A DNA stretch of 64,000 nt from Blastocatellia bacterium (GCA_049273855.1 JBASRN010000295.1:3931-67930); one strand, 5' to 3'. Counted from the stretch's first letter, positions 25,082 through 64,000 are shown. Numbers and translations are program-made. The notes: generated from the sequence alone by a model not told the origin.

Positions 25082-25138
25082 CCAGGTCGTCGAGGCTGTA
25101 CCCAGCAATACGAAATGGAACTTCGGGAGGGCTTGAAG

Positions 25139-28105: not shown

Positions 28106-28116
28106 TCTACTTGTAC

Positions 28117-28678: not shown

Positions 28679-28720
28679 GAGAACAACAGGCCACGCGGTG
28701 GACAACGTGACGCAGCCTGA

Positions 28721-28761: not shown

Positions 28762-28814
28762 AGAATGCAAGCCGGCGGCGAACGCCGCCTCAAACCACCC
28801 CGAGGTTTTAGAGT

Positions 28815-30522: not shown

Positions 30523-31755
<1,233 letters not shown>

Positions 31756-31799
31756 CAGCGGTCTGATTCTCTTCGGTTAGAACCTCGTTTAGGATTGAA

Positions 31800-31832
31800 G
31801 GGCCGATTCAACCTGTCCGGTTGAATCGGCCC
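31800..31832. other. perfect 14-bp stem / 5-nt loop hairpin immediately 5' of paralog 6
   Basis: GGGCCGATTCAACC-TGTCC-GGTTGAATCGGCCC. No U-tract follows. It ends 1 nt before the ATG at 31834. Confidence 0.5.
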
Positions 31833-31833
31833 G

Positions 31834-49406: not shown

Positions 49407-49581
49407 ATTACCCTCCCAGGTTGTAAACAACTTCCGTTAGTGTGGCGAAGAAAGCCCGCTAGCCTCGGGGAAGAGTTGAGTTCTGTAAAAACTCGGCAGG
49501 CGAGCCGAACGCAGAATATCACGAGAGTACTACCGCATCAATACAGACTCGCGGACATACAGACTCGCGGAAGAGGGGCAA

Positions 49582-52179
49582 TCACTTTGCCGGGATGACA
49601 CTGACAAAGCTAACGATGAACTCTTCGTCTTCAATCGCGCCGAAGCCTATCCGACCGTTTGAAAAAGCTGTGTCGGTCGTGAGACTGAAAGGCTGCGGCT
49701 GTGTAGCCTTGGGATTGCTTTTCAGCTGAATTGAGTGCTTGATCTCGGAGCCGCGGGCCTCGACGATTATGTGAAACTTGTCGCCGGGTATGCTCAGGTT
49801 CTCGGGCACCCGAAGGAGCTTCAGCAGCTTTGACTGCCCTTCCTGATAGAGGAAGGTCCGAAATACGTTTGGCGTCGCGGCGTTAGGACCCGTCAATTGG
49901 AACAGGTAGTAACTCTGTTGGTCCTGGGCGCGAAGGATCCAAACAGCGCCCTTTCCATTCGCGAAGCTGACGTCGAACGCCATCCTGAAATCCTTATAGT
50001 TCGCGTCCTTGATTAGCCCTATGCCCTTCCCCTGTACTCGTAGCTTGCCCGGGCCGGCCTGCCAGGTGGGCGGCGCGTTCCAGGCAGCCGCTGCACCCGT
50101 AAAGTCATCGACAAACTCGGGTGAGAATACCACGCGCGCGAGCGGCAGCTTCAGCTCGGCCGAGCCCACGCTGAACACTTGTAACTTCTCGACCGGCTGG
50201 TATTCATTCTTCTTGATCTTGATCCTGTGTTGCCCCGGAGCGAGGCTCAGCACCTTCAGATCACCTTTTTCGTTGGCGCGCCCACCATAGTTATCGTCGA
50301 TGTAGACTTCGGCCTCCGGTTCCGTCCTCACTATCAAGTTTGCGACTGCCGCTTTGAACTCGGTCGGGATGTACTTGGTCTTGCCGCCTTCGACTTCTAT
50401 GTCCCTGGCCCATTCGTTCTGGTTTGCTTGCACGACCTTGAGCTTGTGCGAGCCAGCAGGGATTTCAAGGAACTCGATCAGCTTGTCTTCACGCTTCACG
50501 TTGAACTTAACGGGCCTTTGTCCGTCGATCAGAACAGTCGCGTCGGGTTCGACGGGGCCTATTTGTACTGAACCGACCAGCGGAGTCAGGTCCACGTTAA
50601 CGGCGTAATCGGTGTCCAGCTTTACTCCCTCCACTCGCCTTGATGCGTACTTGGCCGCGCTCACTTCTATGTCGTAGACGCCAGGGACAAGCTCGGCTCG
50701 AAATTTTCCCTCGGCAGTGCTCTGGCCGCTGATTGATCTTACGGTCGGATCCCTCGGCTTGATAGCGATGCCGGCGGCCGGGGCATTCGTCAGCACGATC
50801 AATACGCCCTTGCTTTGCTTCGGAGGCGCTGAGTCTGTTTTTGGCGTTGGAGGCGGGGGCGGTTGAGTGCGTCTGATGGCCAGCTCGGCGTAGCGGCCGT
50901 TGGGGTATTCCCTCAGATAAATTTGGTAATCAGTGGTACTTTTGGTAGTTTGGATTCTCTCCCAGAGCGAATCTTCAGCCAGCATCACGGCGAGCCTGGC
51001 GTTTTTCCCGTTGGGATAAGTCTTGAGATAGCGTTTGAAGTCTTCGGGGTCTCTGCTGCTTCGTATGGCTTCCCAGGAGGCTTCTTCGGCGAAGACACCA
51101 CTGGGATACTTTCTGAGGTACTCGCGATAACTGGCAACGTTGGCGATGGCCTGGGCTTGTTGCCAGGCATCTCGTTCGATCGACCCGCGGTCGGGTATAG
51201 AGACATCTTCCGCGGCAGCGGTTTTTGCCAGTACCAGGTCGCTCGCCTTGTAGCCCTGAATCACGGCGAACGGTCTCTGCATCTTCCCTGAGCCCAGATC
51301 GAGTTGTATACGCTTGGGCACGGTATCCTGAAGAAAACTAACCAGCCCGCTCAGCGTGACCTCGCCGTTGGGATTCGCCGCGGCGCCTTTCAACCCCTCC
51401 ACAAGCGCCCAGGTGAAGTAGCCTTCCTTCTTTTCGGTGTATTCGTATGCGCGATGACCAACCTCGGTGGCGTACAGTGTTGCGAAAGCCTGGATCTCGA
51501 CATTCCGTTCCTCGAAGTTGAACGCTTGCGTATAGCGTTTTGTGAGCGGGTTGTCCGAGTCACCACGCCCGGCGGAAGGATCGTTTCGACACGCGTCCAA
51601 GATCATCACCACCTGTCCGACCCCGGTCTGGACGATCCTCTTGCGCATCTCTTCCACGTTGATGGCGGTGTCTTCCAGAAGGGTGACGTCGCCGCTCACT
51701 TGAGCATCAGACGGCAGCAGGTAGGCCTGTCCTTCGCGCTCGATTCCGTGGCCCGCGAAGGCCACGAGAAGCAGTCCATCTTTTGGGGCGGCAGTGCGAA
51801 GATTTGAAAGCCTGCGCAGGATGTTTCCTCGGGTGGGTCTGCGCTCCGCGGGTTGATCACCAGTCAGCAGAACTACCTGATCTCTCGGAAAACCGGCGTA
51901 CTGGATCAGCGCGTCGACGATTGCCTTGGCGTCGTTGGTCGCGCCTCCGAGTCTGTTGATCTGGGCATCCTGATACTCGTCTACGCCGATGACGAGCGCA
52001 AAACGTTTTGAGCTGTTGGGTAGAGACACCACGGTCGCGGATGGCCGAACTCGCATTCCACGCCCGTCCTTTGGTGCTTGAGCGCTGTGGCTCATCCCAC
52101 CGCCCGAAACCGCGCAACCGCAAATCAAGAACGCAATTATCAGGAGGTTGGATCGGATGTGAGGACGTTTGGCTATCAT
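49582..52179 (-). CDS. caspase-like (peptidase C14) domain protein with C-terminal PEGA/CarboxypepD-like and DUF1080-like domains, secreted/lipoprotein
   Basis: Caspase His-Cys dyad context (FAGHG...ILDACRND). N-terminal signal/lipobox-like LICGC. C-terminal LamG/DUF1080-like region. Confidence 0.7.
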   Translation of the reverse strand: MIAKRPHIRSNLLIIAFLICGCAVSGGGMSHSAQAPKDGRGMRVRPSATVVSLPNSSKRFALVIGVDEYQDAQINRLGGATNDAKAIVDALIQYAGFPRDQVVLLTGDQPAERRPTRGNILRRLSNLRTAAPKDGLLLVAFAGHGIEREGQAYLLPSDAQVSGDVTLLEDTAINVEEMRKRIVQTGVGQVVMILDACRNDPSAGRGDSDNPLTKRYTQAFNFEERNVEIQAFATLYATEVGHRAYEYTEKKEGYFTWALVEGLKGAAANPNGEVTLSGLVSFLQDTVPKRIQLDLGSGKMQRPFAVIQGYKASDLVLAKTAAAEDVSIPDRGSIERDAWQQAQAIANVASYREYLRKYPSGVFAEEASWEAIRSSRDPEDFKRYLKTYPNGKNARLAVMLAEDSLWERIQTTKSTTDYQIYLREYPNGRYAELAIRRTQPPPPPTPKTDSAPPKQSKGVLIVLTNAPAAGIAIKPRDPTVRSISGQSTAEGKFRAELVPGVYDIEVSAAKYASRRVEGVKLDTDYAVNVDLTPLVGSVQIGPVEPDATVLIDGQRPVKFNVKREDKLIEFLEIPAGSHKLKVVQANQNEWARDIEVEGGKTKYIPTEFKAAVANLIVRTEPEAEVYIDDNYGGRANEKGDLKVLSLAPGQHRIKIKKNEYQPVEKLQVFSVGSAELKLPLARVVFSPEFVDDFTGAAAAWNAPPTWQAGPGKLRVQGKGIGLIKDANYKDFRMAFDVSFANGKGAVWILRAQDQQSYYLFQLTGPNAATPNVFRTFLYQEGQSKLLKLLRVPENLSIPGDKFHIIVEARGSEIKHSIQLKSNPKATQPQPFSLTTDTAFSNGRIGFGAIEDEEFIVSFVSVIPAK

Positions 52180-52376: not shown

Positions 52377-54794
52377 ATGCCGCGTGAACACAAGAGCCGC
52401 CGCGAGGTCATTGACGCGATCCGCGAACTTCCATCAACCAGCGAGCTTCTGTCGAAGCACGACGGTCACTTCGACCACGAGCTGGATCTGGAAGTCACCG
52501 TGTATGGCCGCAACTACGGCGGGAAGAAAGTCGGTCCTTACGTACGGTTGCTGACATTCGAGCCGGGCGAGGCCATAGTCACCGAGGGCGAGTGGGGTGG
52601 AAATACGTTCTTTGTGGTGGTGCGCGGCGTGGCCGAGGTCTTCATCGTTACACCGAATAATCAGACTGTGAAAGTAGCTGAGTTGAAGCCGGGGACTCAG
52701 TTTGGCGAGATGAGTGTGCTGGCGGGCGTGCCGCGGAGCGCGACGGTCAAAGCTCCGGCGGGCGGCACGGCGCAGATCCTGGAGATTCAGCGGCCGGCTC
52801 TGCGTCTGCTTCGAAAGCTTCCGGCGTTCGGGGAGGCTCTGGATTCATCTTATCGGTCTCACGGCCGCGACAACATAATCGAGGAACTCAAGCAGGTGGT
52901 CTCGCTGACGCCGCAGATGACTCGGGACCTAAAGACCCTCGCCGCGTTCCGCGTCTTTAGCAAGAATCATGTCCTCTTTCGCGAAAAGGTAGCCGTCGAT
53001 CAGATCTACTTCATAAAGCAAGGTTGGATGCGACGTTCGGAGCAGCCTGACAGCGAAGACTTTCTGGGCCACGGCTTCTGGTTTGGTATCGAAGGGATCT
53101 TGAAGGAAGCTGTGTGGCCGTATTCAGGGACGCTTATGGGACGCACCGAGGTCCTGGAGGTCTCTATCAAGCGGCTGCGCCAGAATGCGCCGCTGCGCGA
53201 GACCCTGGAGCGCGAGCTTATGCGCTTCAGCCCTCCGCGCTTCGGTGCGCTGGTGAGTTCGGTAGCGGCCGTGCGCGAGAAGGAAACCGAGGCCCAGAAG
53301 ACCCTGATCGAAACCGGCCTGGTCGATGCGACCAATCTCCTGGTGATGGACATGGAACTGTGCGTGCGGTGCGGCAACTGCTCGCTCGCTTGTCACAAGA
53401 TCCACGGACAGTCGCGGCTAATGCGTCACGGGATACACGTGACCCGGCTCGAGCGGCCCAGCCCGCGCGCGACTCAAAGCGTGCTCTCACCCGCGGTCTG
53501 TATGCACTGCCAGGATCCGGAGTGTTTGACGGGATGTCCCACCGGAGCTATTGGTCGATTCGGTGGTGGCCACATAGACATCGATGCCAAGACCTGCATC
53601 GGATGCGGTGATTGCGCGACTCAATGCCCCTACAACGCGATCTCGATGATTTCGCGCAAAGGACAGAGCGCGCCTGCGGGTGCGAAGGGTGTTGCATGGA
53701 AGCTTCGCGATTTCCTGCGGCTGACCCCCGACCCGCTTCCCGCTGCTATTGACGCAACGGACGATTTGATGGCGGTGAAGTGCAACCTCTGCAGCGGGAC
53801 TTCGATGAACCCGGCGGGGAGCAAAGAGCCGGCTTACGGTTGTGAAGAGAATTGCCCGACCGGCGCGCTTGCCCGCATCAACCCTCAGGAGTACTTCACC
53901 GAGATCGGCCGTATCGAAGGATTGTTGATGAGGGACCAGACTCACGCCATCGGCCGAAACATCCATCGATCTGATCCGCCTCGGAGAATGATCCACCTGG
54001 CTGGCATCGGTCTGACGGTTGTACTGGCGGCAGTTGCCATAATTGGCATAAGCGAGTTCGGATTGGGTCAGCGGTTGGTGGGCTTTCTCAACATGAGATG
54101 GATCACCGGGCTGGTGGGTCTTTTGGGTATCGCGGCGGTCATGACTTATCCGGTTCGGCGCCAGGTCTATACGAAGCGAAAGGGCGCATTGCGGTATTGG
54201 ATGCTCGCGCATGCCTACGCTGGAGTCATCGCGGGAATAATGATACTTCTGCACGGAGGCACGGATTCGGGCGGCGCGTTGACGACCGTCCTGATGATCT
54301 CTTTCGACCTGGTGGTGCTGACGGGTCTGTTTGGGATCTTCTGCTACCTGGTGGTGCCCCGTCTGCTGACGAGAATCGAAGGCGAGCCATTGTTGATAGA
54401 TGATCTGCTTGCGCGGCGGACTGAACTGCAAAATGAGGTCCGCGACATAGCTGCTTCGTCCGCGGAACCTGTCAAGAAGGTCGTCACTCGGGCGGTGTCA
54501 CGCTACTTGACTTTCGGCTATCTGGTGAAACAGTACCTTTCGCGAGCGCCGCTTGCCGAAATGGTGGAATCGGCTCGGCGCGAGTGTCAACGGGACGCTG
54601 AGACGCTGCCGAACCCGTCGGATCGCAGCAAGTTTGACCGGGCGGTCGCAGCCGCCGCCACGCTGCGGCGACTCGATGCGCTTATCCTGCTCCACCGCAC
54701 GTTAAAGTTGTGGCTGGTGCCTCACGTGGTCTTTACCTCGTTAATGTTAGCGCTGATGCTTGTTCACATCGTACAGGTTATCTATTTCGCCTGA
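52377..54794 (+). CDS. dual cyclic-nucleotide-binding domain protein fused to four 4Fe-4S ferredoxin motifs and a C-terminal polytopic membrane domain
   Basis: Two cNMP-binding beta-barrels (GxxFGEM...). CVRCGNCSLAC, CMHCQDPECLTGC, CIGCGDCATQC and CNLCSG...CEENC clusters. About 5 TM helices at the C-terminus. Confidence 0.75.
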   Translation: MPREHKSRREVIDAIRELPSTSELLSKHDGHFDHELDLEVTVYGRNYGGKKVGPYVRLLTFEPGEAIVTEGEWGGNTFFVVVRGVAEVFIVTPNNQTVKVAELKPGTQFGEMSVLAGVPRSATVKAPAGGTAQILEIQRPALRLLRKLPAFGEALDSSYRSHGRDNIIEELKQVVSLTPQMTRDLKTLAAFRVFSKNHVLFREKVAVDQIYFIKQGWMRRSEQPDSEDFLGHGFWFGIEGILKEAVWPYSGTLMGRTEVLEVSIKRLRQNAPLRETLERELMRFSPPRFGALVSSVAAVREKETEAQKTLIETGLVDATNLLVMDMELCVRCGNCSLACHKIHGQSRLMRHGIHVTRLERPSPRATQSVLSPAVCMHCQDPECLTGCPTGAIGRFGGGHIDIDAKTCIGCGDCATQCPYNAISMISRKGQSAPAGAKGVAWKLRDFLRLTPDPLPAAIDATDDLMAVKCNLCSGTSMNPAGSKEPAYGCEENCPTGALARINPQEYFTEIGRIEGLLMRDQTHAIGRNIHRSDPPRRMIHLAGIGLTVVLAAVAIIGISEFGLGQRLVGFLNMRWITGLVGLLGIAAVMTYPVRRQVYTKRKGALRYWMLAHAYAGVIAGIMILLHGGTDSGGALTTVLMISFDLVVLTGLFGIFCYLVVPRLLTRIEGEPLLIDDLLARRTELQNEVRDIAASSAEPVKKVVTRAVSRYLTFGYLVKQYLSRAPLAEMVESARRECQRDAETLPNPSDRSKFDRAVAAAATLRRLDALILLHRTLKLWLVPHVVFTSLMLALMLVHIVQVIYFA

Positions 54795-54820
54795 ATCGCC
54801 GGCTTTTGCAGGAATTGACG

Positions 54821-57800
54821 ATGGCCGCTAAGAACAGATTCATAATCAAGCGAAACGATTTGACCGTTGATGACGTCGTTGTCGAGAGCGAAGGCCTGAC
54901 GATTGGGCGGCTGATTAGCAATGATCTTTCGCTCAATCACAGGACCGTGTCTCGCACACACGCCGGCATAAAAGAATTCAACGGCGAGTATTGGATATTC
55001 AACCTTTCGTCTTCGAATGGAACGGTGTTGAATGGCGAGCTAGTGGATAGGACTCCGCTGGCTGACGGCGATGTTCTGCAGATCGGCCGTTACATTCTCA
55101 GGCTTAAATACGTCCAGGACGCTCTGGCAGTTACGGTGGAGATGGAGCCGGAGGCTCAGTTGCAGGACGCGCACGCCGCCGCCGTTCCTACTCCTGCCCA
55201 GGCCCCGGCCCCGGACGAAGCCGGCCAGGCCACCCAGGTCTTTCGCCGCGTCGCAGCTCAACCTCCCAAGGCTCCAACCAGGCAGCTACGTGGCACAGGT
55301 CTCCTGACCGGCGTGCTGGCCCCTCAGGCCGAGCAGGCCCTCATGGTCTTCTGGGAGAAGCGAAAGCGAGAAGCCGGCAAGATCGCCGAGAAGTCGCTGC
55401 TGCATCCCCGAGGCGACCGGCGAGTCGGCAAGTCCCAGTTCAATTGGCGGCCTACGCGAGACCTGCAAAAGCTATGGCGCAAATCGTACTTTGCGTGGGG
55501 CGTTGTAATCGTGGCGGTCGTATCCACCGTCGCATTGTTTGCTCACAGCGATGCTTACTCTCCGGGCGTCATTTCGTCGCCTCACACCGCCACTCAAGTA
55601 AGCGAGCGTGGTATCGCCTTGCGGGCGAACGGCGGCTCATGCACTGAGTGTCACGGCGCAACCACCAGCATTCAAGCCAACTGCACCAGCTGCCATCAGA
55701 CGCAGGCGTTCGAACCTTCCGTTTCCAAAGTCCATACGGACGGCGGGCTCACCTGCGTGAGCTGTCACGGTGAGCACATGGGCGCGAGCTTTCGTCCCGG
55801 TCTTGTTGGCTCGGCTATGTGCGTCAGCTGTCACAACGACACATACAAGTTCAAAGGCCAGCCGATTGGCTCTCCGCATGGGGGCTCGGTGGGGTACCCG
55901 GTAGTCAATCGTCAGTGGCAGTGGACCGGTCTTTCCGAAGCCTCGTGGTCCAAGAAGCGACTTCCAGACACCGCCTCGAAGTACACGCCGCTCGAGCAAT
56001 TCCACGTCCTCCATGTCTCCGGCAGGGAGGAGGGCCGTACTAACTGCACGGATTGTCACTCGGCTGGTCTTCATACCGAAGAAGGACTGCATCAGTCGCC
56101 ACGCGCCACTTGCGCGGCGTGTCATAGCACAACGTTCGACGCGGGAGGAGCGATCTTCGGGCCGAATTGCACTTCCTGCCACGTCCAGCACGGTGGCGAG
56201 AAGGACCTAGTCGCTGCCCTGCGGGTCTCATCGGCGATTGAGGATCAATCGGGCTCTCAAGCGAGTGCTGCGAACATCCCGCAGATTGGAAGTGGCGGCG
56301 CCCAGGTGATTCGTCACGACGACACCGGGGCAAGGTGGAGCTTGAAGTCGGACTTGAACGTCGGCGGATTGCCCTGGTACGGCTGGGCGGGAATGCTGGC
56401 GGTCGTGCCAGTGCTTGGCGTCGCGTTGCTGGCCGCCAACAGCATCCGTCGAAGGAACTTCCTGGCCGGCCCCGCTTCCGAGGCTACCACTCAGGACGAG
56501 GTTCAAAAAGCGGGCACAAAGTTTCTCGATCTCGCAAAACTCAAAGCCGATGGACCGGCTTATCCACACCCTGTCATCGATCCGGTCCTGTGCATAGGGT
56601 GCCACGCATGCGTTGAAGCGTGCCCTCACGATGTGCTCGCGATAGTCAACGGAGTATCCACACCCGTCGCCCTGGACCAGTGCATGGAGGACACTGGGTG
56701 CACTGTTGAATGCCCGACGAGTCCAAAGGCATGCATCATCATCAACGGCACCAAGAAGATCCCCCCTCGCAAAGTGCCCAGCAGAAACCAGCGCTTGATG
56801 ACAAACGTGCCGGGCGTCTACATGGTCGGCGATGTGTCGGGTGTCCCGCTGATCAAGAACGCGATAAATGAAGGCGCGCAGGTTATCGACTATGTGCTCG
56901 AAGACATTCGGAGCCAGGGTGAGGCGAAGGCAGAATACGATGTGGCAATAGTTGGCGTTGGTCCGGCGGGACTGTCGGCTACGGCCATTGCGAAGCAAAG
57001 AGGCTTGAGGTACATAGCCGTCGAACAGGACAAGGTCGTCAGCACAATTCAAAACTATCCCGCAGGCAAGTATGTCTTCTTCAAGCCTGATACGGTGGAC
57101 GCGAAGGGCGGGGTGCCGCTCGAGGGCGTCGGCAATCAAAGAGAAGTCATCCTGAAATCGTGGATGAACTCGATGATGCAGAATGGGATCGAAGTCAATG
57201 AAGACGAGAGCTGCAAGGACATCAAGAAAGAGGACGGCGTCTTCAAGGTCACGACCGAGGCCGGCAAGCTCAAGGAGAAATCGACATACACAGCTCGCGC
57301 GGTGATTCTGGCGATCGGTAATCGGGGCACTCCAATGAAACTCAGAGTACCCGGTGAAGAGCTTACGATGCGAGTCCAACCCGGGCCGATGGTGGCAAGG
57401 CATTGTCCGCAGTGCGGCCAGCCGCGAAGCGGTCAACAGGTCTTCTGTGTGCGCTGCGGCCAGAAGCTTCCGGTCAGAACACCTCCGCCTTGCGACGACT
57501 CCAAGGTCAAGTACAAGTTGTCGGATCCGGACGACTACGTAAACCAGAAGTGCATCATTGTCGGGGCCGGCAACTCGTCGATCGAGTCCGCCGTTGCTCT
57601 GACCGGGTTCAAGCGCGTGGGCGATCAAGTCACTTTCACTCGTAACAACGAAGTGGCTCTGGTGGTTAGAAGCGATTTCAAGGGCGACTTGAAGCTGGGC
57701 AACAAGATGGACGTGTACGACTGTATGGACGCCGGAAGAATAAAGGTCTTCTTCCGCACCGAGATCAAAGAGATTACCGAGAAGGAAGTTGTGTTGATGG

Positions 57801-57913
57801 ACACGCGCTCGAAAGAGGAGAAGGCCCGGCTGGCAAATGACTACGTATTTGCGCTCATCGGAGGCGAGAAGCCGACAAAGTTTCTTGAAGGCATAGGGAT
57901 CAAGATTGGGTGA
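54821..57913 (+). CDS. FHA domain - TM - heptaheme cytochrome c - TM - 4Fe-4S ferredoxin - FAD/NAD(P) oxidoreductase (with inserted Zn ribbon) fusion protein
   Basis: FHA signature (VSRTHAGI...NGTVLNGE...GDVLQIG). Seven CxxCH motifs. Two TM helices. CIGCHACVEACPHD ferredoxin motif. Two GxGxxG dinucleotide folds. CPQCG...CVRCG ribbon. Confidence 0.8.
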   Translation: MAAKNRFIIKRNDLTVDDVVVESEGLTIGRLISNDLSLNHRTVSRTHAGIKEFNGEYWIFNLSSSNGTVLNGELVDRTPLADGDVLQIGRYILRLKYVQDALAVTVEMEPEAQLQDAHAAAVPTPAQAPAPDEAGQATQVFRRVAAQPPKAPTRQLRGTGLLTGVLAPQAEQALMVFWEKRKREAGKIAEKSLLHPRGDRRVGKSQFNWRPTRDLQKLWRKSYFAWGVVIVAVVSTVALFAHSDAYSPGVISSPHTATQVSERGIALRANGGSCTECHGATTSIQANCTSCHQTQAFEPSVSKVHTDGGLTCVSCHGEHMGASFRPGLVGSAMCVSCHNDTYKFKGQPIGSPHGGSVGYPVVNRQWQWTGLSEASWSKKRLPDTASKYTPLEQFHVLHVSGREEGRTNCTDCHSAGLHTEEGLHQSPRATCAACHSTTFDAGGAIFGPNCTSCHVQHGGEKDLVAALRVSSAIEDQSGSQASAANIPQIGSGGAQVIRHDDTGARWSLKSDLNVGGLPWYGWAGMLAVVPVLGVALLAANSIRRRNFLAGPASEATTQDEVQKAGTKFLDLAKLKADGPAYPHPVIDPVLCIGCHACVEACPHDVLAIVNGVSTPVALDQCMEDTGCTVECPTSPKACIIINGTKKIPPRKVPSRNQRLMTNVPGVYMVGDVSGVPLIKNAINEGAQVIDYVLEDIRSQGEAKAEYDVAIVGVGPAGLSATAIAKQRGLRYIAVEQDKVVSTIQNYPAGKYVFFKPDTVDAKGGVPLEGVGNQREVILKSWMNSMMQNGIEVNEDESCKDIKKEDGVFKVTTEAGKLKEKSTYTARAVILAIGNRGTPMKLRVPGEELTMRVQPGPMVARHCPQCGQPRSGQQVFCVRCGQKLPVRTPPPCDDSKVKYKLSDPDDYVNQKCIIVGAGNSSIESAVALTGFKRVGDQVTFTRNNEVALVVRSDFKGDLKLGNKMDVYDCMDAGRIKVFFRTEIKEITEKEVVLMDTRSKEEKARLANDYVFALIGGEKPTKFLEGIGIKIG

Positions 57914-59475
57914 CGAAGCCCGACGAAGAGATGAAGTACATGCGAAACATCCTTGCGACCGTTTCCTCCTTGATCGTGCTGTGCTGGAGCGTCGCGCAAG
58001 CGCAACAACCGGAGCAAAAGGTTTATTCAGCATCAATCAAGGGCGGTCAGGTCTCGAGCCGGAGTGCGATGCGCGTGGAAGGGGCATACCGCGACATATT
58101 TAACACGAAGCAATGGGGAAACGATTTAGGACACATCTGGAGGGTCTACATTGGGGTTCCGATTAAGTTCATTTGGAGTCACGCCGGCAGATACTCGAAA
58201 GTGGAGCTGGCGGTTCAGGAGCTGTCCCTTTCCGGCGACGGCAAATTGTCTTCGATGCGTGTCAAGGTCAATGGCAGGAAGGCAATTGATTTTGCCGAAT
58301 CGTCCTTCAAGAGGACAATCATCGACATAACAAACTTTGTGGTCCCCGGAGAAAACGTTCTTGAAGTCGCCTCAAAAGAGGGAACGAATCTTCTTCACGG
58401 CGTCCAATCTGTTGAAGTTATTTACCACGCGGCAGCCGACACGGCTCCTCCGCAGGTCACAATCTTCGAGCCTTCGGTTGAGAGAGGGCTGAAGGTTGTT
58501 CGCAAAGAGAAAGCGATAACCGTGAGAGGGCGGGCAACGGATGAAAGCGGGGTCTACGAAGTATGGGTTAATGATGTTGAGGCGAGCCTTTCGGCGAATG
58601 GAGATTTTCAAGCGCAAGTGTTACTGGCCGTCGGAGAAAACCAGATTCGTGTAAGAGCGACGGATACAAAGAAAAACACATCCGAAACTGCGTTTGCAAT
58701 CACCCGCGAATCGGATTCGATAAAGGGTGTGATTCAGCCCGCGGGCAGTGAAGCCGCTTTCATCAGTGGAAGATTCTATGCGCTTATCATCGCGGTGCAG
58801 GACTATCGCGATCCCAGTGTGAATGGCCTGGACCACCCTATTCAAGACGCATCGCGACTGAAAGCCATCCTAACCGGCAACTACAGCTTTGAAGAGAGAA
58901 ATATCATCTTTCTGAGAAACCCAGATCGCGCCACCATTATCGACAAGCTCGACGAATTGACCCGGAAAATAACCGAGAACGACAGCCTGTTGATCTTCTA
59001 TGCGGGGCATGGGTATTGGGATGAAACACTAAAACAGGGATTCTGGCTGCCAAGTAATGCGAAGAGAGACACACGCTCCGAGTGGCTGCCTAACAGCACC
59101 CTGAGAGATTATCTTGGCGGAATCAAAGCAAAGCACACGCTGCTAATCGCGGATGCTTGCTTTAGCGGCAGCATATTCAAGACGCGCGACGCCTTCAGCG
59201 ATGCGCAAGCATCTGTCAAGGAGTTGTATCGGCTGCCCAGTCGCAAAGCGATGACGAGCGGCGCTATGAAGATGGTTCCCGATAAGAGCGTCTTCGTGGA
59301 GTATCTCGTAAAGCGATTGGCTGAGAACCAGCAAAAGTACGTCTCCGCCGAAGAATTGTTCAGCAGTATGCGAAAAGCGATCATCAACAACAGCCCTAAC
59401 AAACAGACCCCGCAATACGGTGAGATTCGGGAGACGGGAGACGAAGGAGGGGACTTTGTTTTCGTGCGGAGGTAG
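57910..59475 (+). CDS. caspase-like (peptidase C14) domain protein, secreted
   Basis: YAGHG...IADACFSG His/Cys dyad. Signal peptide. GTG start overlaps the upstream stop (GTGA). An alternative ATG lies at 57931. Confidence 0.7.
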   Translation: MTKPDEEMKYMRNILATVSSLIVLCWSVAQAQQPEQKVYSASIKGGQVSSRSAMRVEGAYRDIFNTKQWGNDLGHIWRVYIGVPIKFIWSHAGRYSKVELAVQELSLSGDGKLSSMRVKVNGRKAIDFAESSFKRTIIDITNFVVPGENVLEVASKEGTNLLHGVQSVEVIYHAAADTAPPQVTIFEPSVERGLKVVRKEKAITVRGRATDESGVYEVWVNDVEASLSANGDFQAQVLLAVGENQIRVRATDTKKNTSETAFAITRESDSIKGVIQPAGSEAAFISGRFYALIIAVQDYRDPSVNGLDHPIQDASRLKAILTGNYSFEERNIIFLRNPDRATIIDKLDELTRKITENDSLLIFYAGHGYWDETLKQGFWLPSNAKRDTRSEWLPNSTLRDYLGGIKAKHTLLIADACFSGSIFKTRDAFSDAQASVKELYRLPSRKAMTSGAMKMVPDKSVFVEYLVKRLAENQQKYVSAEELFSSMRKAIINNSPNKQTPQYGEIRETGDEGGDFVFVRR

Positions 59476-59530
59476 TGATCAAGCTGCTGGGTTTGACGCT
59501 CTCGGCATAACTCCGCCGCGGGAAGCGCCG

Positions 59531-60364
59531 GTGTCGAGGCAAATAGACCGGCTTAAGAAAGGCGTCGTCTCTTTCTTCCTCGCGGCAGTGGCCCTGTCTG
59601 GCGCGTTCGTTGGAAAGAGCGAGGCTGCGGGTGAACCGGCCTCGCTGTTAATTCAACCCCAAGCCAGCGGCAAATTCGACCATACGTCGCAAAGACACAG
59701 TCAAATTAAATGCGATGTGTGTCATGTGCGAAGGGCCGACGCAGCCAAGCCAGTGCTCCCGGGCCACCGCGCCTGCATATCTTGTCACATCAAAGAGTTC
59801 ACTTCGACGCAGTTCGGCATCTGCTCCAATTGTCACGAAGGTATAAATGCAGTGCAACCAAAAGTGCTGACCTTCCCTGAAAGGCAAACCTTTGGAACCG
59901 AGTTCTCGCACAAGACACACGCGACTTATGTGAGCGGCGAGAAGCGGGCCGATTGCTCAAGTTGCCACGCGGTCGCCGGAGCGAGGACCACATTCCCGGC
60001 GCACCGGGAGTGCTATGTTTGCCATAAGGCTCCCGATCAGGTGAAGGCCGGCGAGAAGGTGGGAGGAGCGAGCTGCGGCGAATGCCATACAACTACCGGG
60101 AATAAGAAGCCGCCCTCCGCGATGAGCAAAGCTTACAATTACAGATTCACCCACCAGGCCCACGTACAGCGCGAAGGAATCGGTTGCACCGAATGTCATA
60201 AGGTGCTCGGTGAGACCGCTGTTCAGGTATCACTGCCGCAACTTAGAGAGCATCGTGGAGCGGCGTTTCAAGGGTGCGGTGGTTGCCACAACGGCAGGCG
60301 AGCTTTCGGCGGTGAACTGGTGAGTAACGCCTGCGCCCGCTGCCACGGAAGAAATATGATGTAG
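59531..60364 (+). CDS. nonaheme c-type cytochrome (c3/c7-like), periplasmic
   Basis: Nine CxxCH motifs in about 280 aa. Putative GTG start with a signal peptide VVSFFLAAVALSGAFVG. The track ORF at 59420 overlaps the upstream gene. Confidence 0.7.
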   Translation: MSRQIDRLKKGVVSFFLAAVALSGAFVGKSEAAGEPASLLIQPQASGKFDHTSQRHSQIKCDVCHVRRADAAKPVLPGHRACISCHIKEFTSTQFGICSNCHEGINAVQPKVLTFPERQTFGTEFSHKTHATYVSGEKRADCSSCHAVAGARTTFPAHRECYVCHKAPDQVKAGEKVGGASCGECHTTTGNKKPPSAMSKAYNYRFTHQAHVQREGIGCTECHKVLGETAVQVSLPQLREHRGAAFQGCGGCHNGRRAFGGELVSNACARCHGRNMM

Positions 60365-60568
60365 CGATCTTGTGGCAGTCCGCGATAGTTTTGTTGCGAC
60401 GACCGTACATATTCATTCCATTGAATTTTTCCGGAAGAAAAAGCGACATTGCGCTGGTGAGGGCTAACTAGCGATTGCCTTCATACGATTCGGACGTTAT
60501 AGTAGGGCCGGAAAATTCTTGTCGGAATACGCAGCAGCGAACTTGTAACCGGGTTTCGGGAGGTCGGA

Positions 60569-61360
60569 ATGATCAAACGCTTCAAGCTAACCTTTTTTGC
60601 TCTCTTCTGTTTTGTGGTTGGCGGTCAGTTCGTCTGGACGAGCGCGCAGGAGATGCCCGCCGAGAAGGCATTCAAAAACATTCAGGCGCTCAAGGGCATT
60701 CCGGCAAGCCAGATAACCCCGTTCATGGATAATTTCAACAAGGCCCTTGGGGTCAGCTGCGACTATTGCCACGTGCCGAACGCTCTCGAGAAAGGCGACA
60801 AGGCTGCCCATAAGATGTCAATCCAGATGATCAAGATGACGCGCGACATCAATCAGCGTTACCAGATCAACATCGATTGCATGTCGTGCCATCAGGGCAA
60901 GAACAAGCCGCCGCACCTTGGCCAGAGCATGAAGTTTGGGCCGGGCGGAGCCGGGGCGGGGGGCGGCCGGGACCTGTCGCAGAAAGTCCCGGACGTCGTT
61001 ACTAAGACCACCACGACCCCGCCTAAGACAACGACTCCGACCACCCAACCAACTGCTAACACCGCCGAGGCCAAAGCGGAACCGGACCCTCCCGGCAAGG
61101 TGGTCTTCAAAGCCAGCTTCGGTGCGGTTGCCTTCGATCACGGGCAACATATGAATGTCGGCGATTGCGCCAAGTGCCACCACACTGGCGAAAACAACAA
61201 GTGTGATACTTGCCATCTGCACAACAAGAAGGCGAGCGCGGCGACTCAAGTATCGTTTTATGCCGCGTCGCACGGGACCAAGAGCGAGAGATCATGCACA
61301 GGATGTCATCTGCAATCGAAGGCCGGTCCCACAAAATGCGCCGAATGCCACAAGAAGTGA
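60569..61360 (+). CDS. pentaheme c-type cytochrome (reaction-centre-cytochrome-like N-terminus + triheme c7-like C-terminus)
   Basis: Signal peptide. CDYCH, CMSCH, CAKCHH, CDTCH and CTGCH/CAECH motifs. T/P-rich linker. Confidence 0.7.
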   Translation: MIKRFKLTFFALFCFVVGGQFVWTSAQEMPAEKAFKNIQALKGIPASQITPFMDNFNKALGVSCDYCHVPNALEKGDKAAHKMSIQMIKMTRDINQRYQINIDCMSCHQGKNKPPHLGQSMKFGPGGAGAGGGRDLSQKVPDVVTKTTTTPPKTTTPTTQPTANTAEAKAEPDPPGKVVFKASFGAVAFDHGQHMNVGDCAKCHHTGENNKCDTCHLHNKKASAATQVSFYAASHGTKSERSCTGCHLQSKAGPTKCAECHKK

Positions 61361-61480
61361 AACGTCCGGCGTGAATCCAGTCGGACGAATCGGCTCGTGC
61401 GTTGACTTAATATCCGAAAGAGAATATTTTCTTGCGGTCGCCAGGTGACGGCAGGTCGGTGTTGTATCCAGGAGGAGAAC

Positions 61481-64000
61481 ATGGACGGGCGGATGCGCGC
61501 AAAGTTGGCCGTTTTGCTCTTTCTCGGCTGCATCTTCTCGCTCCTATGGCTTCCCAACAGCGCAGGGAAAGTACCCCGTCGGGCCGCTTCGTCCGGCAAC
61601 CCGCACACGACGCCGGAAAGCCTCGACCCGATCAGCTTTCATGGTTCGGCCGCTGGTCCCGACCATAAACAGAGCTCGGCTATCTCTTCATCTCAAGTCG
61701 GTGCAGACGCGCTTTTGGGGGGGACCTGCATCAATTGCCACGTGGGCATAACGCCCGCTCATACCAAGACGGCGCTCAAGTGCACCGACTGCCACGGTGG
61801 CAATGACACGGTCAATACGGGACCAAATCCCAATATTCGCGACAAGAATTTGATGAGCCAGGCTCACGTGCGCCCGAAGAATCCAAAGTTTTACTGGGCC
61901 AACGGAATAGATGATGCGTTCGCGGGAGCACCGGGCAAGGGCGACACGGAGTTTGACGTTTTCAACAATAACCTTGACCCGGTTGACAACAACAATCTGA
62001 TCGGCACGCACGTAGACGCGGAATACAGCCGTGACCTGAACTATGTTCGATTCATAAACCCAAGCGACTATCGTGTGGCGATGGTGAGCTGCGGAAGCCA
62101 ATCTCCGGCCGGTTCATCAATGTCCTCCTGTCACGGGAACATCGTGGAGGTGGCCCGCAAGAGCATCATGGCGAATAATCAAGCACAGTTCGCCACAGCC
62201 ACCTACGCCAATCACGCGCCGCTTGGTTCGACCAACGCCAACCCGTTGGGAACCAACCCGACCGGGCGCCAGAACCCAAGGGACGGAGAGGTGGGCGTGA
62301 ATGTCAATTACGATGACATTGACGGCGCTTATGATCCGAAGACCAATCGATTCGACAGCGCCAAGCTCCTGGCTATCGCCCGAAGCGATGACGATCCCTT
62401 CAATGACAACTTCGAAGCCATCGGTGCGCCTCTCGTCGATAAGGACGGTCAGAAGAAGACGGCCGTCCACGGGAGCAGCACGTTGCCCCCTTCACCCCCG
62501 ACCAACCGGTTGCGCGGAATTGGAGGCAAGCGGATCGTCGCCGCTGCGCTGCCGCGCGCGCAGAAGCAGATATTTTCCTGGCCTCGCCGCGACTCACAGG
62601 CAAATCCCAACGACCCATCATCAGCGCTGATCAAGACGGTCCTCGATCTTTACGGATTCAACGACACGGTCGGGCATCAGCCGATCGATGCCGGCTTCAA
62701 CGCCGTGCGCGCCTTTGACCCCGGTCTGTTCCCTGACAACAATCAGAACTTCCCCTTCCCGTTCGATGACAATCGACCCGACCGCATTCAGCTCGCGCAG
62801 GCCCGTAGAACCGCCAATGTGAACGATCAGAAAGAGTTCGTGCCGCCCAACCCTTTCAACCGCAATCGCAACAGCGGCTGCGCTTCGTGCCATATGCTCT
62901 ACCGGCCTGACGGCCACAACGAGGAGCCTTTCGATAAGACCGTCAGGGAGAATGGCAGACAGATAACCACCGATACGGTCACGGGCCAGCGTGAAGACCA
63001 GGGCGAGCGCGGCTATCCCGCGATTCACCAGTTGACGACGAAGATACCCACCAACCAGTGTGGCATCTGTCACGTCTTCACGACCAGAGTTGACGTGGCA
63101 TTCAAGGGAACTTTTGAGGTTGAAAACAACAACTTCAACTTCCGCTGGTCTACCGCCGCAGACGCGACGGGCAAGAACATCCCGTTCCAGTTCACCAACA
63201 CCAAGGGAACCAAGGTGAATATGTTCGATAACTTTGTGACGGTGGACGTCAATGGCCAGGTCCTTAAAGATAAGGACGGCAGAGGGGATGGGGAAGGCGT
63301 ATCGGAAGACCTCAATAACAACGGCATACTCGATTCCGGCGAGGATAAGAACAACAACGGGATGCTTGATATTCCCGACCGGCTCCAGCGCTCGGACGCG
63401 CAGGATGGTCGGCAGATGCGCATTATGTACGGCGGGGCGACCGGAAACGTTCGCTTGATGGACATTCATCTTGAAAAAGGGATGGAGTGCATTGATTGCC
63501 ACTTCTATCAAGACCTTCACGGCGATGGCAACATTTATACACGCAACTGGGACGCGATAGAGATAGAGTGCCAGGATTGTCACGGGACGGCGAAGAAACT
63601 CGCTACGCTGAAAACATCAGGCCCGAACGGCAACAATGATCTGAGGCAATCCATGGACGAAAACGGCACTCCCTTCTTCGAGATTCGCGGAGATGGATCC
63701 AGGATACAGCGCTCGCGAGTGAGAGATGGGCTTTTCTGGCGGATTCCGCAGGTCAAAGAAGCGATAACGAGGGGGAACCAACACTTCAACAGGGATGCTT
63801 TTGAAGCGATGGGCCAGAAGTCCGTTTCAAACCCGAAAGAGTTTGCGCATATCAACAACAGCAGGGAACAAGGCAAGGTAGAGTGCTACACCTGTCACAA
63901 TGCAGCCACGCCCAGTTGCTTCGCCTGCCACTACACGCAGGACTATTTCCCGAAGGTCACACCGGGCAGCACGTTAGAGATAAACAACCAACCGCGGCGC
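61481..64000 (+). CDS. large multiheme c-type cytochrome (5'-partial within window; continues beyond 64000)
   Basis: Open frame from ATG 61481 to the window end with no stop, at least 840 aa. Signal-anchor LAVLLFLGCIFSLLW. At least 8 CxxCH motifs (CINCH, CTDCH, CASCH, CGICH, CIDCH, CQDCH, CYTCH, CFACH). Confidence 0.7.
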   Translation, partial: MDGRMRAKLAVLLFLGCIFSLLWLPNSAGKVPRRAASSGNPHTTPESLDPISFHGSAAGPDHKQSSAISSSQVGADALLGGTCINCHVGITPAHTKTALKCTDCHGGNDTVNTGPNPNIRDKNLMSQAHVRPKNPKFYWANGIDDAFAGAPGKGDTEFDVFNNNLDPVDNNNLIGTHVDAEYSRDLNYVRFINPSDYRVAMVSCGSQSPAGSSMSSCHGNIVEVARKSIMANNQAQFATATYANHAPLGSTNANPLGTNPTGRQNPRDGEVGVNVNYDDIDGAYDPKTNRFDSAKLLAIARSDDDPFNDNFEAIGAPLVDKDGQKKTAVHGSSTLPPSPPTNRLRGIGGKRIVAAALPRAQKQIFSWPRRDSQANPNDPSSALIKTVLDLYGFNDTVGHQPIDAGFNAVRAFDPGLFPDNNQNFPFPFDDNRPDRIQLAQARRTANVNDQKEFVPPNPFNRNRNSGCASCHMLYRPDGHNEEPFDKTVRENGRQITTDTVTGQREDQGERGYPAIHQLTTKIPTNQCGICHVFTTRVDVAFKGTFEVENNNFNFRWSTAADATGKNIPFQFTNTKGTKVNMFDNFVTVDVNGQVLKDKDGRGDGEGVSEDLNNNGILDSGEDKNNNGMLDIPDRLQRSDAQDGRQMRIMYGGATGNVRLMDIHLEKGMECIDCHFYQDLHGDGNIYTRNWDAIEIECQDCHGTAKKLATLKTSGPNGNNDLRQSMDENGTPFFEIRGDGSRIQRSRVRDGLFWRIPQVKEAITRGNQHFNRDAFEAMGQKSVSNPKEFAHINNSREQGKVECYTCHNAATPSCFACHYTQDYFPKVTPGSTLEINNQPRR

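Follow-up and report, generated by a model that had tools for sequence, protein, structure and literature searches.

Positions 54,821–57,913 of a 64,000-nt stretch of DNA from a Blastocatellia bacterium, a soil Acidobacterium, raise the question of what is done by a single 1030-aa protein that joins an FHA domain, a transmembrane (TM) helix, seven c-type haems, a second TM helix, a putative 2x[4Fe-4S] ferredoxin and a permuted flavoprotein. The whole stretch is referred to as the window, and all features described below lie on its + strand. The uninterrupted single open reading frame extends from 54,710 to 57,913, and the ATG at 54,821 is the likely start, with AGGA 8 nt ahead and the stop codon of the upstream gene 26 nt before it.

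Homologues of 1024–1050 aa covered 100% of the product. The gene family comprises more than 120 protein clusters (48–93% identity) and occurs in no fewer than 101 species-level genomes, nearly all from Acidobacteriota/Blastocatellia. The possibility that homologues always occur as separate genes without FHA fails, because the gene is fused at 40 loci, and at the 32 loci where it is split into FHA–haem and ferredoxin–flavoprotein genes FHA is retained in the gene that encodes the haem domain. The sequence-only reading had considered such an architecture very unusual. This view has to be tempered: it is common in Blastocatellia, other lineages have it with two to five FHA domains, and FHA–multihaem proteins are known in Gallionellaceae. 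The system is both real and conserved.

Cofactor domains of the 1030-aa protein

All the elements listed in the sequence-only reading (FHA domain, two TM helices, seven haems, ferredoxin, flavoprotein and zinc ribbon) were present and conserved, the conservation of residues being computed over 95 homologues. The HMM scans that it proposed returned Pfam matches for FHA, Cytochrome_C7, Fer4 and Pyr_redox_3/2, together with a weak double zinc ribbon.

The cytoplasmic FHA domain (aa 5–108; 54,833–55,144) matched PF00498 over aa 27–89 with 58.3 bits against a cut-off of 20.7, and was modelled by AF2 with a pLDDT of 73–88. The residues of the pThr pocket (R30, S44, R45, H47, S65, N66 and T68) are present, and R45 and N66 are retained in 88 of the 95 homologues. 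The best PDB relatives are GarA/OdhI, the nearest solved FHA domains, with identical pThr-pocket residues; G29-R30, S44-R45-x-H47 and S65-N66 align with their GarA counterparts. The conserved linker motif AGQA-T138-QVFRRV (55,220–55,252), a Thr followed by hydrophobic residues, is inferred from sequence to be a candidate phospho-site for this domain. The equivalent Thr was found in 87 of the 88 sequences whose FHA pocket is intact, and a subclade of seven sequences has lost both the Thr motif and the pocket residues. In GarA, ETTSVFR is the autoinhibitory site; it has in common with TQVFRR the Thr-x-hydrophobic pattern and the location in a flexible part of the chain that carries the FHA domain, but it lies N-terminal to the FHA domain, whereas the T138 motif is C-terminal. 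Unlike GarA/OdhI, the FHA domain here is tethered to a membrane redox protein. By analogy, T138 and the FHA domain may resemble a GarA-like phospho-switch.

A juxtamembrane cytoplasmic segment (FWEKRKREAGK...NWRPTxDL...WRKSYF; 55,316–55,483) was recognized by its conservation. It contains the invariant residues W178, R181, R183, E184, G186, K187, W209 and L215, and its W-x-P-T/S-x-D core was found in distant relatives too. TM helix 1 (aa 222–241; 55,484–55,543; AF2 helix 218–240), a hydropathy peak with basic flanks, leads from the cytoplasm to the outside, and TM helix 2 (aa 519–541; 56,375–56,443; AF2 helix 519–548), a hydropathy peak followed by RRR, returns the chain to the cytoplasm. The cytoplasmic ends of both helices are flanked by basic residues, and the split-gene forms possess an additional N-terminal TM helix by which the same TM2 topology is kept.

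All seven CxxCH motifs (aa 274, 288, 312, 334, 409, 431 and 450) lie between the two TM segments, in a periplasmic domain (aa 248–458; 55,562–56,194) matched by Cytochrome_C7. They are invariant among the 95 homologues, as are seven further His (255, 305, 319, 353, 395, 398 and 457), the putative distal ligands. With CxxCH motifs and axial His outside the cytoplasmic membrane, the domain has the expected features of a multihaem c-type cytochrome. An eighth match to CxxCH (CIGCH, aa 591) belongs to the ferredoxin motif and is no haem site. No conserved His was found in TM1 or TM2 across the 95 homologues, and the 1030-aa protein appears to hold no cofactor within the membrane. What had been read as a transmembrane electron-transfer chain thus stands as regards the cofactor domains, but not as regards a polypeptide that spans the membrane electrically on its own; the membrane step must come from the predicted b-haems of the partner protein described below.

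The ferredoxin domain (aa 582–641; 56,564–56,743; CxxCxxCxxxCP plus Cx5Cx3CP...C) matched Fer4 at aa 584–606. The single ferredoxin motif noticed previously is there in its canonical form (C591–C601P), but the domain has Cys for two Fe-S clusters: eight are invariant in the 95 homologues (591, 594, 597, 601, 621, 627, 631 and 638), the second motif being a non-canonical Cx5Cx3CP plus C638.

The flavoprotein gave Pyr_redox_3/2 matches over aa 706–1029 (114 and 86 bits). The best sequence and fold matches of aa 700–1030 were YpdA/Bdr and the TrxR-type ferredoxin–NADP reductases (Foldseek: 3ab1, 3lzw, 2zbw, 6gas and 5twb; E 1e-11 to 1e-14). It consists of a 'GD' strand–helix element of the FAD domain, delimited by alignment and AF2 (aa 655–698; 56,783–56,914), a FAD-binding Rossmann part with GVGPAG, matched by Pyr_redox_3 and YpdA (aa 704–850; 56,930–57,370), and an NAD(P)H-binding domain with GAGNSS and the invariant R950-S951 (aa 895–1030; 57,503–57,910). 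The GxGxxG at 712–717, G670-D671 and G915/G917 are also invariant in the 95 homologues. The 'GD' element precedes GxGxxG here and is C-terminal in YpdA/TrxR; the chain stops after the NAD(P)H domain, where YpdA runs on into its last FAD subdomain. The alignment with YpdA halts at about residue 265 of 326, and only artificial re-permutation carried it on to residue 294, which raised the score from 60.5 to 70.0 bits. These alignments show a circular permutation of the flavoprotein with respect to YpdA/TrxR.

Membership of the YpdA/Bdr family (TIGR04018) was rejected at 141.9 bits against the NCBIfam cut-off of 339.9. The active-site Cys14 is absent (GVGPAG versus GGGPCG, with Ala aligned to the Cys of 7a76/7a7b), and the linear order FAD-N, NADPH, FAD-C is not kept, the 'GD' element standing ahead of GxGxxG. 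Thioredoxin reductase (TIGR01292) was rejected likewise (59.9 versus 343 bits); no CxxC occurs in aa 700–1030 outside the zinc ribbon, so the TrxR redox-active motif is lacking. Cys798 and Cys968 are invariant in the family and not retained in distant relatives. Because the catalytic cysteines of YpdA/TrxR are absent, the flavoprotein seems to resemble a ferredoxin:NAD(P) reductase. The two-Rossmann FAD/NADPH fold is common to it, YpdA/Bdr (7a76, 7a7b and 7apr) and the TrxR-type FNRs (3ab1, 3lzw, 2zbw and 6gas), and with the latter it shares the TrxR fold without CxxC. The C-terminal extension that stacks on the flavin in TrxR-type ferredoxin–NADP+ reductases is missing here, the chain ending at aa 1030 after the NADPH domain. 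Unlike YpdA and the FNRs, the flavoprotein is also permuted, carries a zinc ribbon at its hinge and shares its chain with a ferredoxin and a membrane anchor.

That zinc ribbon (CPQCG-x10-CVRCG; aa 860–882; 57,398–57,466; weak Pfam match at aa 862–893) is placed at the hinge of the FAD and NAD(P)H domains. Its Cys 862, 865, 876 and 879 are at least 90% conserved among the 95 homologues; the ribbon is missing in eight of them and in distant relatives. Its absence from one subclade and multiplication in three sequences indicate a true insertion, as had been proposed. The joint loss of the FHA pocket, the Thr motif and the ribbon was probably one evolutionary event.

The upstream partner gene and the locus

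The adjacent upstream gene (52,377–54,794; 805 aa, its start at 52,296 having been replaced by 52,377) encodes two cNMP-binding domains, a 4x[4Fe-4S] domain and a 5-TM domain. Its earlier designation as a plausible partner gained support, as it is directly upstream at 64 of the 66 loci with enough flank. The adjacency extends to relatives at 27–29% identity, including the distant loci L087 and L088; at two of the 66 informative loci (L003 and L040) no adjacent partner was found. The natural fission of the downstream gene at 32 loci, together with the splitting of the partner itself in L088, speaks for the parts being subunits of a single machine.

The cNMP-binding region of the partner (52,554–53,246) matched Pfam cNMP_binding with 88 bits in two stretches, and a motif scan found the canonical G-E...R-S-A phosphate-binding cassette in domain 1 and no such cassette in domain 2. 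The cytoplasmic four-cluster Fe-S domain (53,349–53,876; 16 Cys) is NrfC/DsrO-like, its top NCBIfam scores, all below cut-off, being those of DsrO (66 versus 200 bits), ArrB and HmcB (37 versus 420 bits). Two predicted TM helices of the membrane domain (53,979–54,791) bear the His pairs H612/H626 and H783/H797, with i, i+14 spacing within each pair. These His are invariant in 49 sequences and also kept in relatives at 27–29% identity. The two invariant His-x13-His pairs suggest that the partner holds two b-haems. Their arrangement agrees with the ferric-reductase/NOX-type spacing of two His pairs 13–14 residues apart on two TM helices. The membrane domain matched no Pfam family, and no hit to Ferric_reduct or related families was obtained in it even at E up to 10; non-significant matches to DUF4405 (E 0.32) and Ni_hydr_CYTB (E 1) appeared in the L088 partner homologue only.

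Multihaem cytochromes flank nearly all loci examined. Those downstream in the window are a secreted c7-type cytochrome with nine CxxCH (59,420–60,364), whose homologue adjoins the gene in L001, L007, L008 and L083, a cytochrome with six CxxCH (CytoC_RC/class III; 60,569–61,360), and a large multihaem lipoprotein with at least eight CxxCH (61,481–64,000). The last of these runs past the window end and is the counterpart of the 1270–1550-aa LVIVD multihaem proteins in related loci. No porin adjoining the gene pair was identified in the window. PDEase_II (cAMP phosphodiesterase) is encoded downstream in 20 of 63 loci, an FHA–GAF–cyclase at 18 of 63, and G6PD not more than 10 kb away in 12 of 63, accompanied in L004 and L006 by 6PGD, OpcA and glucokinase. 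This phosphodiesterase, cyclase and pentose-phosphate context is limited to one subclade and is absent from the window. The suggested co-occurrence with Ser/Thr kinases or PP2C phosphatases was not borne out in the window, where a Pfam scan of the 46 larger ORFs returned neither; at one distant locus, L088, it was, with a PP2C gene and a cyclase–FHA gene nearby.

Known systems, electron path and its control

Periplasmic multihaem c and membrane di-haem b together move electrons across the inner membrane in Tmc/Hmc/DsrMKJOP and in Geobacter CbcL/ImcH, coupled to quinones or to DsrC/HdrD-type catalysis, and Tmc/Hmc/Dsr have cytoplasmic Fe-S proteins too. To our knowledge, none of them has a flavoprotein, FHA or cNMP domain. 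From the NADPH oxidase/ferric-reductase superfamily and Fre–MsrQ the present pair differs by the lack of a Ferric_reduct Pfam match, five instead of six predicted TM helices, six interposed Fe-S clusters, seven appended c-haems and another flavoprotein fold.

In the literature just fragments of such systems are described, in two preprints. The 'NHC' cluster of Ferrigenium straubiae encodes a nonahaem cytochrome c with FHA and one TM helix, its neighbours being a 5-TM protein and a [4Fe-4S] protein of the cytosol; its function is unknown, and its authors favour inward Fe(II)-to-quinone flow (bioRxiv 10.64898/2026.01.22.701106). A 'Forkhead-associated protein, 10 CXXCH' was listed for 27 Gallionellaceae genomes (PMC10734462). 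Likened by description, NHC resembles the window in its cytoplasmic FHA domain, its single TM helix and its multihaem domain in the periplasm, beside a motif-less 5-TM protein and an Fe-S protein, and its parts list matches the split forms, which are separate genes in L043 and L088. The Gallionellaceae proteins have nine or ten haems versus seven, with neither a ferredoxin–flavoprotein nor a cNMP domain reported. The ptdABCDEFG operon of marine Alphaproteobacteria UBA11136 and others, whose function its authors call 'completely unknown', includes multihaem proteins, PtdE (cNMP-binding + 4Fe-4S), PtdF (transmembrane ferric-reductase-like) and PtdC (FAD/NAD(P) oxidoreductase) (bioRxiv 10.1101/2023.11.21.568154). 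All four kinds of parts, again likened by description, are present at 52,377–64,000. The ptd operon, on the other hand, has separate genes, a porin (PtdB) and a pentahaem protein (PtdA), FHA is unmentioned, and PtdC, described as flavohaemoprotein-like, may have a different flavoprotein fold.

The model that we prefer, and to which we give an even chance of being right, is a cAMP- and phospho-Thr-gated chain from NAD(P)H through FAD, FeS and haem b to haem c. The gene product and its upstream neighbour would form a two-protein inner-membrane redox complex (three- or four-protein in other lineages) that connects NAD(P)H in the cytoplasm with multihaem cytochromes in the periplasm and has no need for the quinone pool. 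The FAD of the permuted TrxR-fold domain would be reduced by NAD(P)H, presumably NADPH, and would pass electrons first to the fused ferredoxin, with its two [4Fe-4S] clusters, and then to the partner, with its four. The membrane would be crossed via two b-haems on the His-x13-His pairs, from which electrons would reach the seven bis-His c-haems of the 1030-aa protein in the periplasm and finally the multihaem cytochromes, secreted or lipoprotein, of the neighbouring genes. Gating may be exerted by cAMP/cGMP on the first cNMP domain of the partner and by the FHA domain reading Ser/Thr phosphorylation, possibly as a GarA-like intrachain switch on Thr138. Both the redox potential of NADPH (~-320 mV) and a membrane potential that is negative inside favour outward flow, and a drain of NADPH electrons of this kind plausibly needs tight control.

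A quinone-linked module has a modest chance of being the right reading. The di-haem domain of the partner would then oxidise quinol or reduce quinone in the manner of NarI/FdnI/CbcL, the seven-haem domain would take quinol electrons as ImcH/CbcL/CymA do, and the Fe-S/flavoprotein arm would be either another entry route, from NAD(P)H to quinone, or an add-on for redox sensing. Neither a quinone-site motif nor a family match was found in the partner by Pfam, and the conserved, fused, six-cluster, FAD-containing cytoplasmic arm is hard to see as an accessory; the reading is compatible with the preferred gated chain rather than exclusive of it.

The direction of flow is not fixed by the architecture, because the similar Tmc/Hmc/Dsr complexes carry electrons inward. 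Low-potential donors (H2/formate via cytochromes, Fe(II) or reduced humics) might feed the c-haems and b-haems and, in the end, NAD(P)+ or another cytoplasmic acceptor. The layout of periplasmic c-haems, membrane b-haems and cytoplasmic Fe-S is identical to that of Tmc/Hmc/DsrMKJOP, the partner Fe-S domain scores best, if below cut-off, against DsrO, ArrB and HmcB, and an FHA–multihaem protein occurs in Fe(II)-oxidising Gallionellaceae. Yet electron transfer from cytochromes c to NAD(P)+ runs energetically uphill and against the membrane potential, the neighbourhood genes are NADPH-producing and not NADPH-consuming, and Blastocatellia are chiefly aerobic heterotrophs, so that inward flow is considered improbable. 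The chance is equally slim that the complex is a redox sensor and not a bulk conduit, its haem domain sensing periplasmic redox state, its flavoprotein NAD(P)H, and its FHA/cNMP domains coupling both to Ser/Thr-kinase and cAMP signalling. Such a role would suit the unusually dense signalling domains (FHA and two cNMP, with FHA–GAF–cyclase and phosphodiesterase at many loci), but sixteen chained redox centres constantly linked to several abundant multihaem cytochromes fit flux better, and Pfam found no output domain (kinase, DNA-binding or GGDEF) on either protein. Finally, an assembly or frameshift artefact fusing adjacent genes, for which the split versions in other genomes might speak, can be dismissed, as the fused ORF is in frame at 40 independent species-level loci and in more than 100 clusters of proteins that come from separate assemblies (the closest 93% identical), and the linker and TM2 align continuously across the fused forms.

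Altogether, the gated chain may tentatively be seen as a hitherto uncharacterised class of respiratory vent, NOX-like and independent of quinones, in which 16 cofactors (FAD, six Fe-S, two haem b and seven haem c) would convey NADPH electrons to extracellular-type cytochromes. Its switching would be direct and post-translational: cAMP would act on the Fe-S/b-haem subunit, and a GarA-like FHA/pThr138 pair on the haem–flavoprotein subunit would respond to Ser/Thr phosphorylation. Such a vent would be widespread in soil Acidobacteriota, with modular relatives (ptd and NHC) in Proteobacteria, Nitrospirales and Planctomycetes.

The fused gene and its homologues

The FHA gene lies within an uninterrupted ORF (54710-57913, + strand). 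Its likely start is the ATG at 54821, with AGGA 8 nt 5' of it, and this ATG comes 26 nt downstream of the stop codon (54794) of the preceding gene, here called the partner. The 1030-aa product was covered over 100% of its length by homologues of 1024-1050 aa. All parts named in the sequence-only reading (FHA, TM helices, seven CxxCH motifs, ferredoxin, flavoprotein and zinc ribbon) were found in place. Pfam detected the FHA domain at aa 27-89 (58 bits vs the cut-off of 20.7), Cytochrome_C7, Fer4 at aa 584-606, Pyr_redox_3 and Pyr_redox_2 at aa 706-1029 and, weakly, a double zinc ribbon at aa 862-893. The seven CxxCH motifs, read directly at aa 274, 288, 312, 334, 409, 431 and 450, are bracketed by hydrophobic segments (approximately aa 222-241 and 519-541) with basic residues on the cytoplasmic side; an eighth match, CIGCH at aa 591, is the first part of the ferredoxin motif. 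The best match of the haem domain among PDB sequences was a cytochrome c7 with an E value of only 0.06, and the promoter/terminator scan gave no signal exceeding chance.

The search of 5.8 billion proteins retrieved more than 120 clusters of full-length homologues (48-93% identity) with the identical Pfam set, derived from Blastocatellia/Acidobacteriota MAGs and named only 'NAD(P)-binding domain-containing protein' or 'thioredoxin reductase'. Scanning one genome per species revealed at least 101 loci, nearly all in Acidobacteriota, Chloracidobacterium MAGs among them. Fused full-length homologues across many clusters and loci rule out a frameshift or fusion artefact. The fused gene was present in 40 of 85 related loci and split into two ORFs in 32; the two ORFs overlap, abut or have one or two unrelated genes between them. 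The first ORF encodes the FHA, TM and 7-haem part (~480-500 aa), and the second a ferredoxin-flavoprotein of ~560 aa with two TM helices at its start, the extra helix being demanded by topology if the flavoprotein is to be cytoplasmic. Since the fused form is widespread and FHA is kept on splitting, the ORF is neither a product of frameshifted adjacent genes nor an exception among homologues that always occur separately and without FHA. The observation itself is confirmed, and the interpretation attached to it is supported with refinements.

In the alignment of 95 sequences, all seven CxxCH motifs and seven further His residues (255, 305, 319, 353, 395, 398 and 457) were invariant, and the latter are sufficient for bis-His ligation of every haem. 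The eight ferredoxin Cys, the GxGxxG and G670-D671 motifs of the FAD site, G915 and G917 of the NAD(P) site and R950-S951 were invariant as well. The zinc ribbon, conserved in at least 90% of sequences, is lacking throughout one subclade and present in multiple copies in three sequences, and so is a genuine lineage-specific insertion. Strong conservation was also seen in the cytoplasmic segment before the first TM helix (window 55316-55483, aa 166-221; FWEKRKREAGK ... NWRPTxDL ... WRKSYF). Its W-x-P-T/S-x-D core is kept in proteins with other numbers of FHA domains and in one FHA-less relative, and the segment may be a docking site for the partner.

When 1.84 billion representatives were searched with a profile, the family grew to 719 proteins at E < 1e-30. 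It includes multi-FHA forms (two, three or five such domains) that keep the layout of TM, 6-10 haems, TM, ferredoxin and permuted flavoprotein (one of them from a MAG labelled Pseudomonadota), one FHA-less form and stand-alone ferredoxin-flavoproteins. At the loci of distant relatives the cNMP/Fe-S partner and the c7 cytochromes were present again. Several MAGs titled 'uncultured Clostridia', 'Heliobacteriaceae' or 'Heliomicrobium' (loci L008, L018, L033, L037, L044, L046, L048, L050, L052, L054, L059, L064, L074 and L076) carry 53-67% identical loci with the same gene order, and the taxonomy of these records looks wrong; L041, titled 'Actinomycetota', is merely 37% identical.

The FHA domain and the permuted flavoprotein

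The closest solved relatives of the FHA domain are the regulators GarA and OdhI, with which the pThr-pocket residues R30, S44, R45, H47, S65, N66 and T68 agree; R45 and N66 were retained in 88 of 95 homologues. About 40 residues past the domain, in a linker otherwise variable and of low confidence, a conserved Thr followed by hydrophobic residues (AGQA-T138-QVFRR) resembles ETTSVFR, the autoinhibitory site of GarA. Thr138 was present in 87 of the 88 sequences with an intact pocket. Seven sequences have a degraded pocket (R45 replaced by P, E or L and, in six, N66 by H or Y), and in these the linker, Thr138 and the zinc ribbon are all gone. The joint loss is probably one evolutionary event, hence the link between pocket and Thr motif is suggestive only.

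The best sequence and fold matches of the flavoprotein were the bacillithiol-disulfide reductases YpdA/Bdr (7a76, 7a7b; Foldseek E 3e-17), followed by TrxR-type ferredoxin-NADP reductases and thioredoxin reductases. Function as a bacillithiol-disulfide or thioredoxin reductase was rejected on the basis of sub-cut-off scores (142 bits vs 340 for the NCBIfam YpdA model), the permuted domain and the missing catalytic Cys: the Cys of GGGPCG in YpdA is replaced by Ala, and the CxxC of TrxR is lacking. Cys798 and Cys968 were considered as a redox pair and discarded, being invariant in the family but not kept in distant relatives.

The flavoprotein is circularly permuted relative to YpdA/TrxR. The strand-helix element 'GVYMVGDV...', which is C-terminal in those enzymes and closes the FAD domain, precedes GxGxxG in the query, and the natural alignment to YpdA ends at approximately residue 265 of 326. 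When aa 644-699 were placed after aa 1030 and the search was repeated, the alignment with 7a7b crossed the artificial junction and reached residue 294, scoring 70.0 instead of 60.5 bits; chains of TrxR and of dihydrolipoamide dehydrogenase likewise aligned over the junction. The order of GD before GxGxxG was found in most distant relatives that were checked, a stand-alone 437-aa TM-ferredoxin-flavoprotein among them. With a ferredoxin fused immediately in front and no thiol chemistry, the best inference for the role is a ferredoxin:NAD(P) oxidoreductase. Arg950-Ser951 and the pentose-phosphate genes near some loci hint at a preference for NADPH.

The partner gene and the neighbourhood

The upstream gene had been put forward as a plausible partner, and the linkage bears this out: of 66 loci with sufficient flanking sequence, 64 have it immediately upstream, and only L003 and L040 have no adjacent copy. 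Its true start is 52377 (52377-54794, + strand; 805 aa). The product has two cNMP-binding domains, the first with a canonical G-E...R-S-A cassette and the second without it, sixteen Cys in four Fe-S motifs and a C-terminal domain with five predicted TM helices. Among 49 homologues two His pairs are invariant, H612/H626 and H783/H797, each on its own TM helix at i, i+14, the spacing with which cytochrome b and NOX/ferric reductases bind two stacked b-haems. The TM helices of the FHA-gene product have no conserved His. The membrane electron step would thus be supplied by the partner, probably through haem b. At L001, a Blastocatellia locus (71% identical), an IS200/Y1 transposase gene (9413-9913) lies between the two genes. 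The full-length homologue at L003 (10001-13147 of a 1.3-Mb contig; 48% identical), with no adjacent partner, is surrounded by F420-biosynthesis genes (CofC, CofD, F420 ligase, F420 oxidoreductase). At L088, which belongs to a distant three-FHA relative, two genes share the role of the partner, one for the cNMP/Fe-S part and one for a 357-aa membrane protein.

Downstream of the pair, the window encodes first a caspase-like protein, then two cytochromes (a c7-type one with 9 haems and one with 6) and lastly a large multihaem lipoprotein that continues past the window end. Related loci encode like cytochromes, including multihaem proteins of 780 aa and 1270-1550 aa. Within one large subclade of fused forms, a class-II cAMP phosphodiesterase (20 of 63 loci) and an FHA-GAF-adenylate/guanylate cyclase (18 of 63) lie downstream. 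Of 63 loci, 12 have G6PD no more than 10 kb away, in a divergent oxidative pentose-phosphate cluster of the large fused-form subclade, with 6PGD, OpcA and glucokinase beside it in L004 and L006. No Ser/Thr kinase, PP2C, cyclase, phosphodiesterase or G6PD was detected in the window (46 larger ORFs scanned; tblastn), such genes being a feature of other loci of the family; a PP2C gene, together with a guanylate-cyclase-FHA gene, was found in L088 (16912-19258).

Caspase-domain (Peptidase_C14) genes flank the pair on both sides (49582-52179, - strand; 57910-59475, + strand). The downstream one overlaps the FHA-gene stop codon by 4 nt and has no homologue among the 85 related loci, which marks it as a genome-specific insertion. 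A 1252-aa outer-membrane beta-barrel protein (OMP_b-brl_4, CarboxypepD_reg, weak Plug) is encoded 3 kb upstream of the cluster (45672-49430, - strand) and might conceivably act as a porin for the cytochromes. Farther away, four tandem paralogous genes of 472-549 aa, each with a weak Cu2_monoox_C domain (23663-30464, + strand), precede two c-type cytochrome genes (30523-33180, + strand); together they may constitute a periplasmic set of copper monooxygenases with dedicated electron donors. The gene at 33388-34518 (+ strand), a TIR domain fused to a nucleotidyl-transferase domain (TIR_2/ThsB_TIR + NTP_transferase), is possibly of defence type.

A putative electron path and its regulation

To our knowledge, the exit of electrons from the cytoplasm to periplasmic or extracellular multihaem cytochromes is understood only in a few model bacteria, in which quinol dehydrogenases perform this step, and we know of no established route in Acidobacteriota or other abundant phyla of soil. 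The simplest reading of the two genes is a chain of 16 redox centres from NAD(P)H to secreted cytochromes, built by a complex of both products. Electrons would pass from NAD(P)H to FAD and two Fe-S clusters within the FHA-gene product, then to four Fe-S clusters and two b-haems of the partner, and finally through the seven c-haems of the FHA-gene product to the secreted cytochromes. Redox potential and the inside-negative membrane potential would favour outward flow, so that inward, Tmc-like flow appears very unlikely. A quinone-linked module is less improbable, if still unlikely, and is compatible with the 16-centre chain; a role as a redox sensor is quite as doubtful as inward flow. Outward flow through the chain would draw down NADPH and the membrane potential, and on this ground direct control by cAMP and phospho-Thr would make sense, as would the local pair of cyclase and phosphodiesterase. 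The domains, their conserved ligands, the permutation, the linkage of the genes and their fusion and fission are shown by the analysis; binding of haem b, assembly into a complex, a preference for NADPH, the direction of flow and the gating are inferred.

Every part is of a known type, and pieces of the system have been noticed before. In Ferrigenium straubiae, an FHA, 1-TM, nonahaem cytochrome is encoded beside a motif-less 5-TM protein and a cytosolic 4Fe-4S protein (the NHC cluster); its authors stated that FHA was previously unreported with multihaem cytochromes and that the function is unknown (bioRxiv 10.64898/2026.01.22.701106). A 'Forkhead-associated protein' with 10 CXXCH motifs was listed in the Gallionellaceae pangenome (PMC10734462). 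The ptd operon of marine Alphaproteobacteria and other groups, with a function that its authors call 'completely unknown', contains genes for a cNMP/4Fe-4S protein, a ferric-reductase-like TM protein, an FAD/NAD(P) oxidoreductase and multihaem proteins (bioRxiv 10.1101/2023.11.21.568154). NHC and ptd are likened to the present system by their described parts, not by sequence. In the literature we found no description of the FHA-haem-ferredoxin-flavoprotein fusion or its mechanism, nor of the cNMP/Fe-S/5-TM partner as a characterised system.

The fusion physically links an orphan FHA-multihaem cytochrome to a NAD(P)H-type flavoprotein, and the partner contributes a predicted di-haem membrane wire with a predicted cAMP receptor, so that the fusion points to a cytoplasmic electron source as well as to regulatory inputs. 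As a natural fusion, the gene puts forward a donor, a path across the membrane and two regulatory inputs for a widespread orphan cytochrome system. It also gives a clue to the function of the related ptd and NHC systems, found in marine nitrogen-cycling and in iron-oxidising bacteria. If true, the chain would represent a new pathway of extracellular electron transfer or redox balance and the first electron-transfer chain directly gated by a cyclic nucleotide and phospho-threonine.
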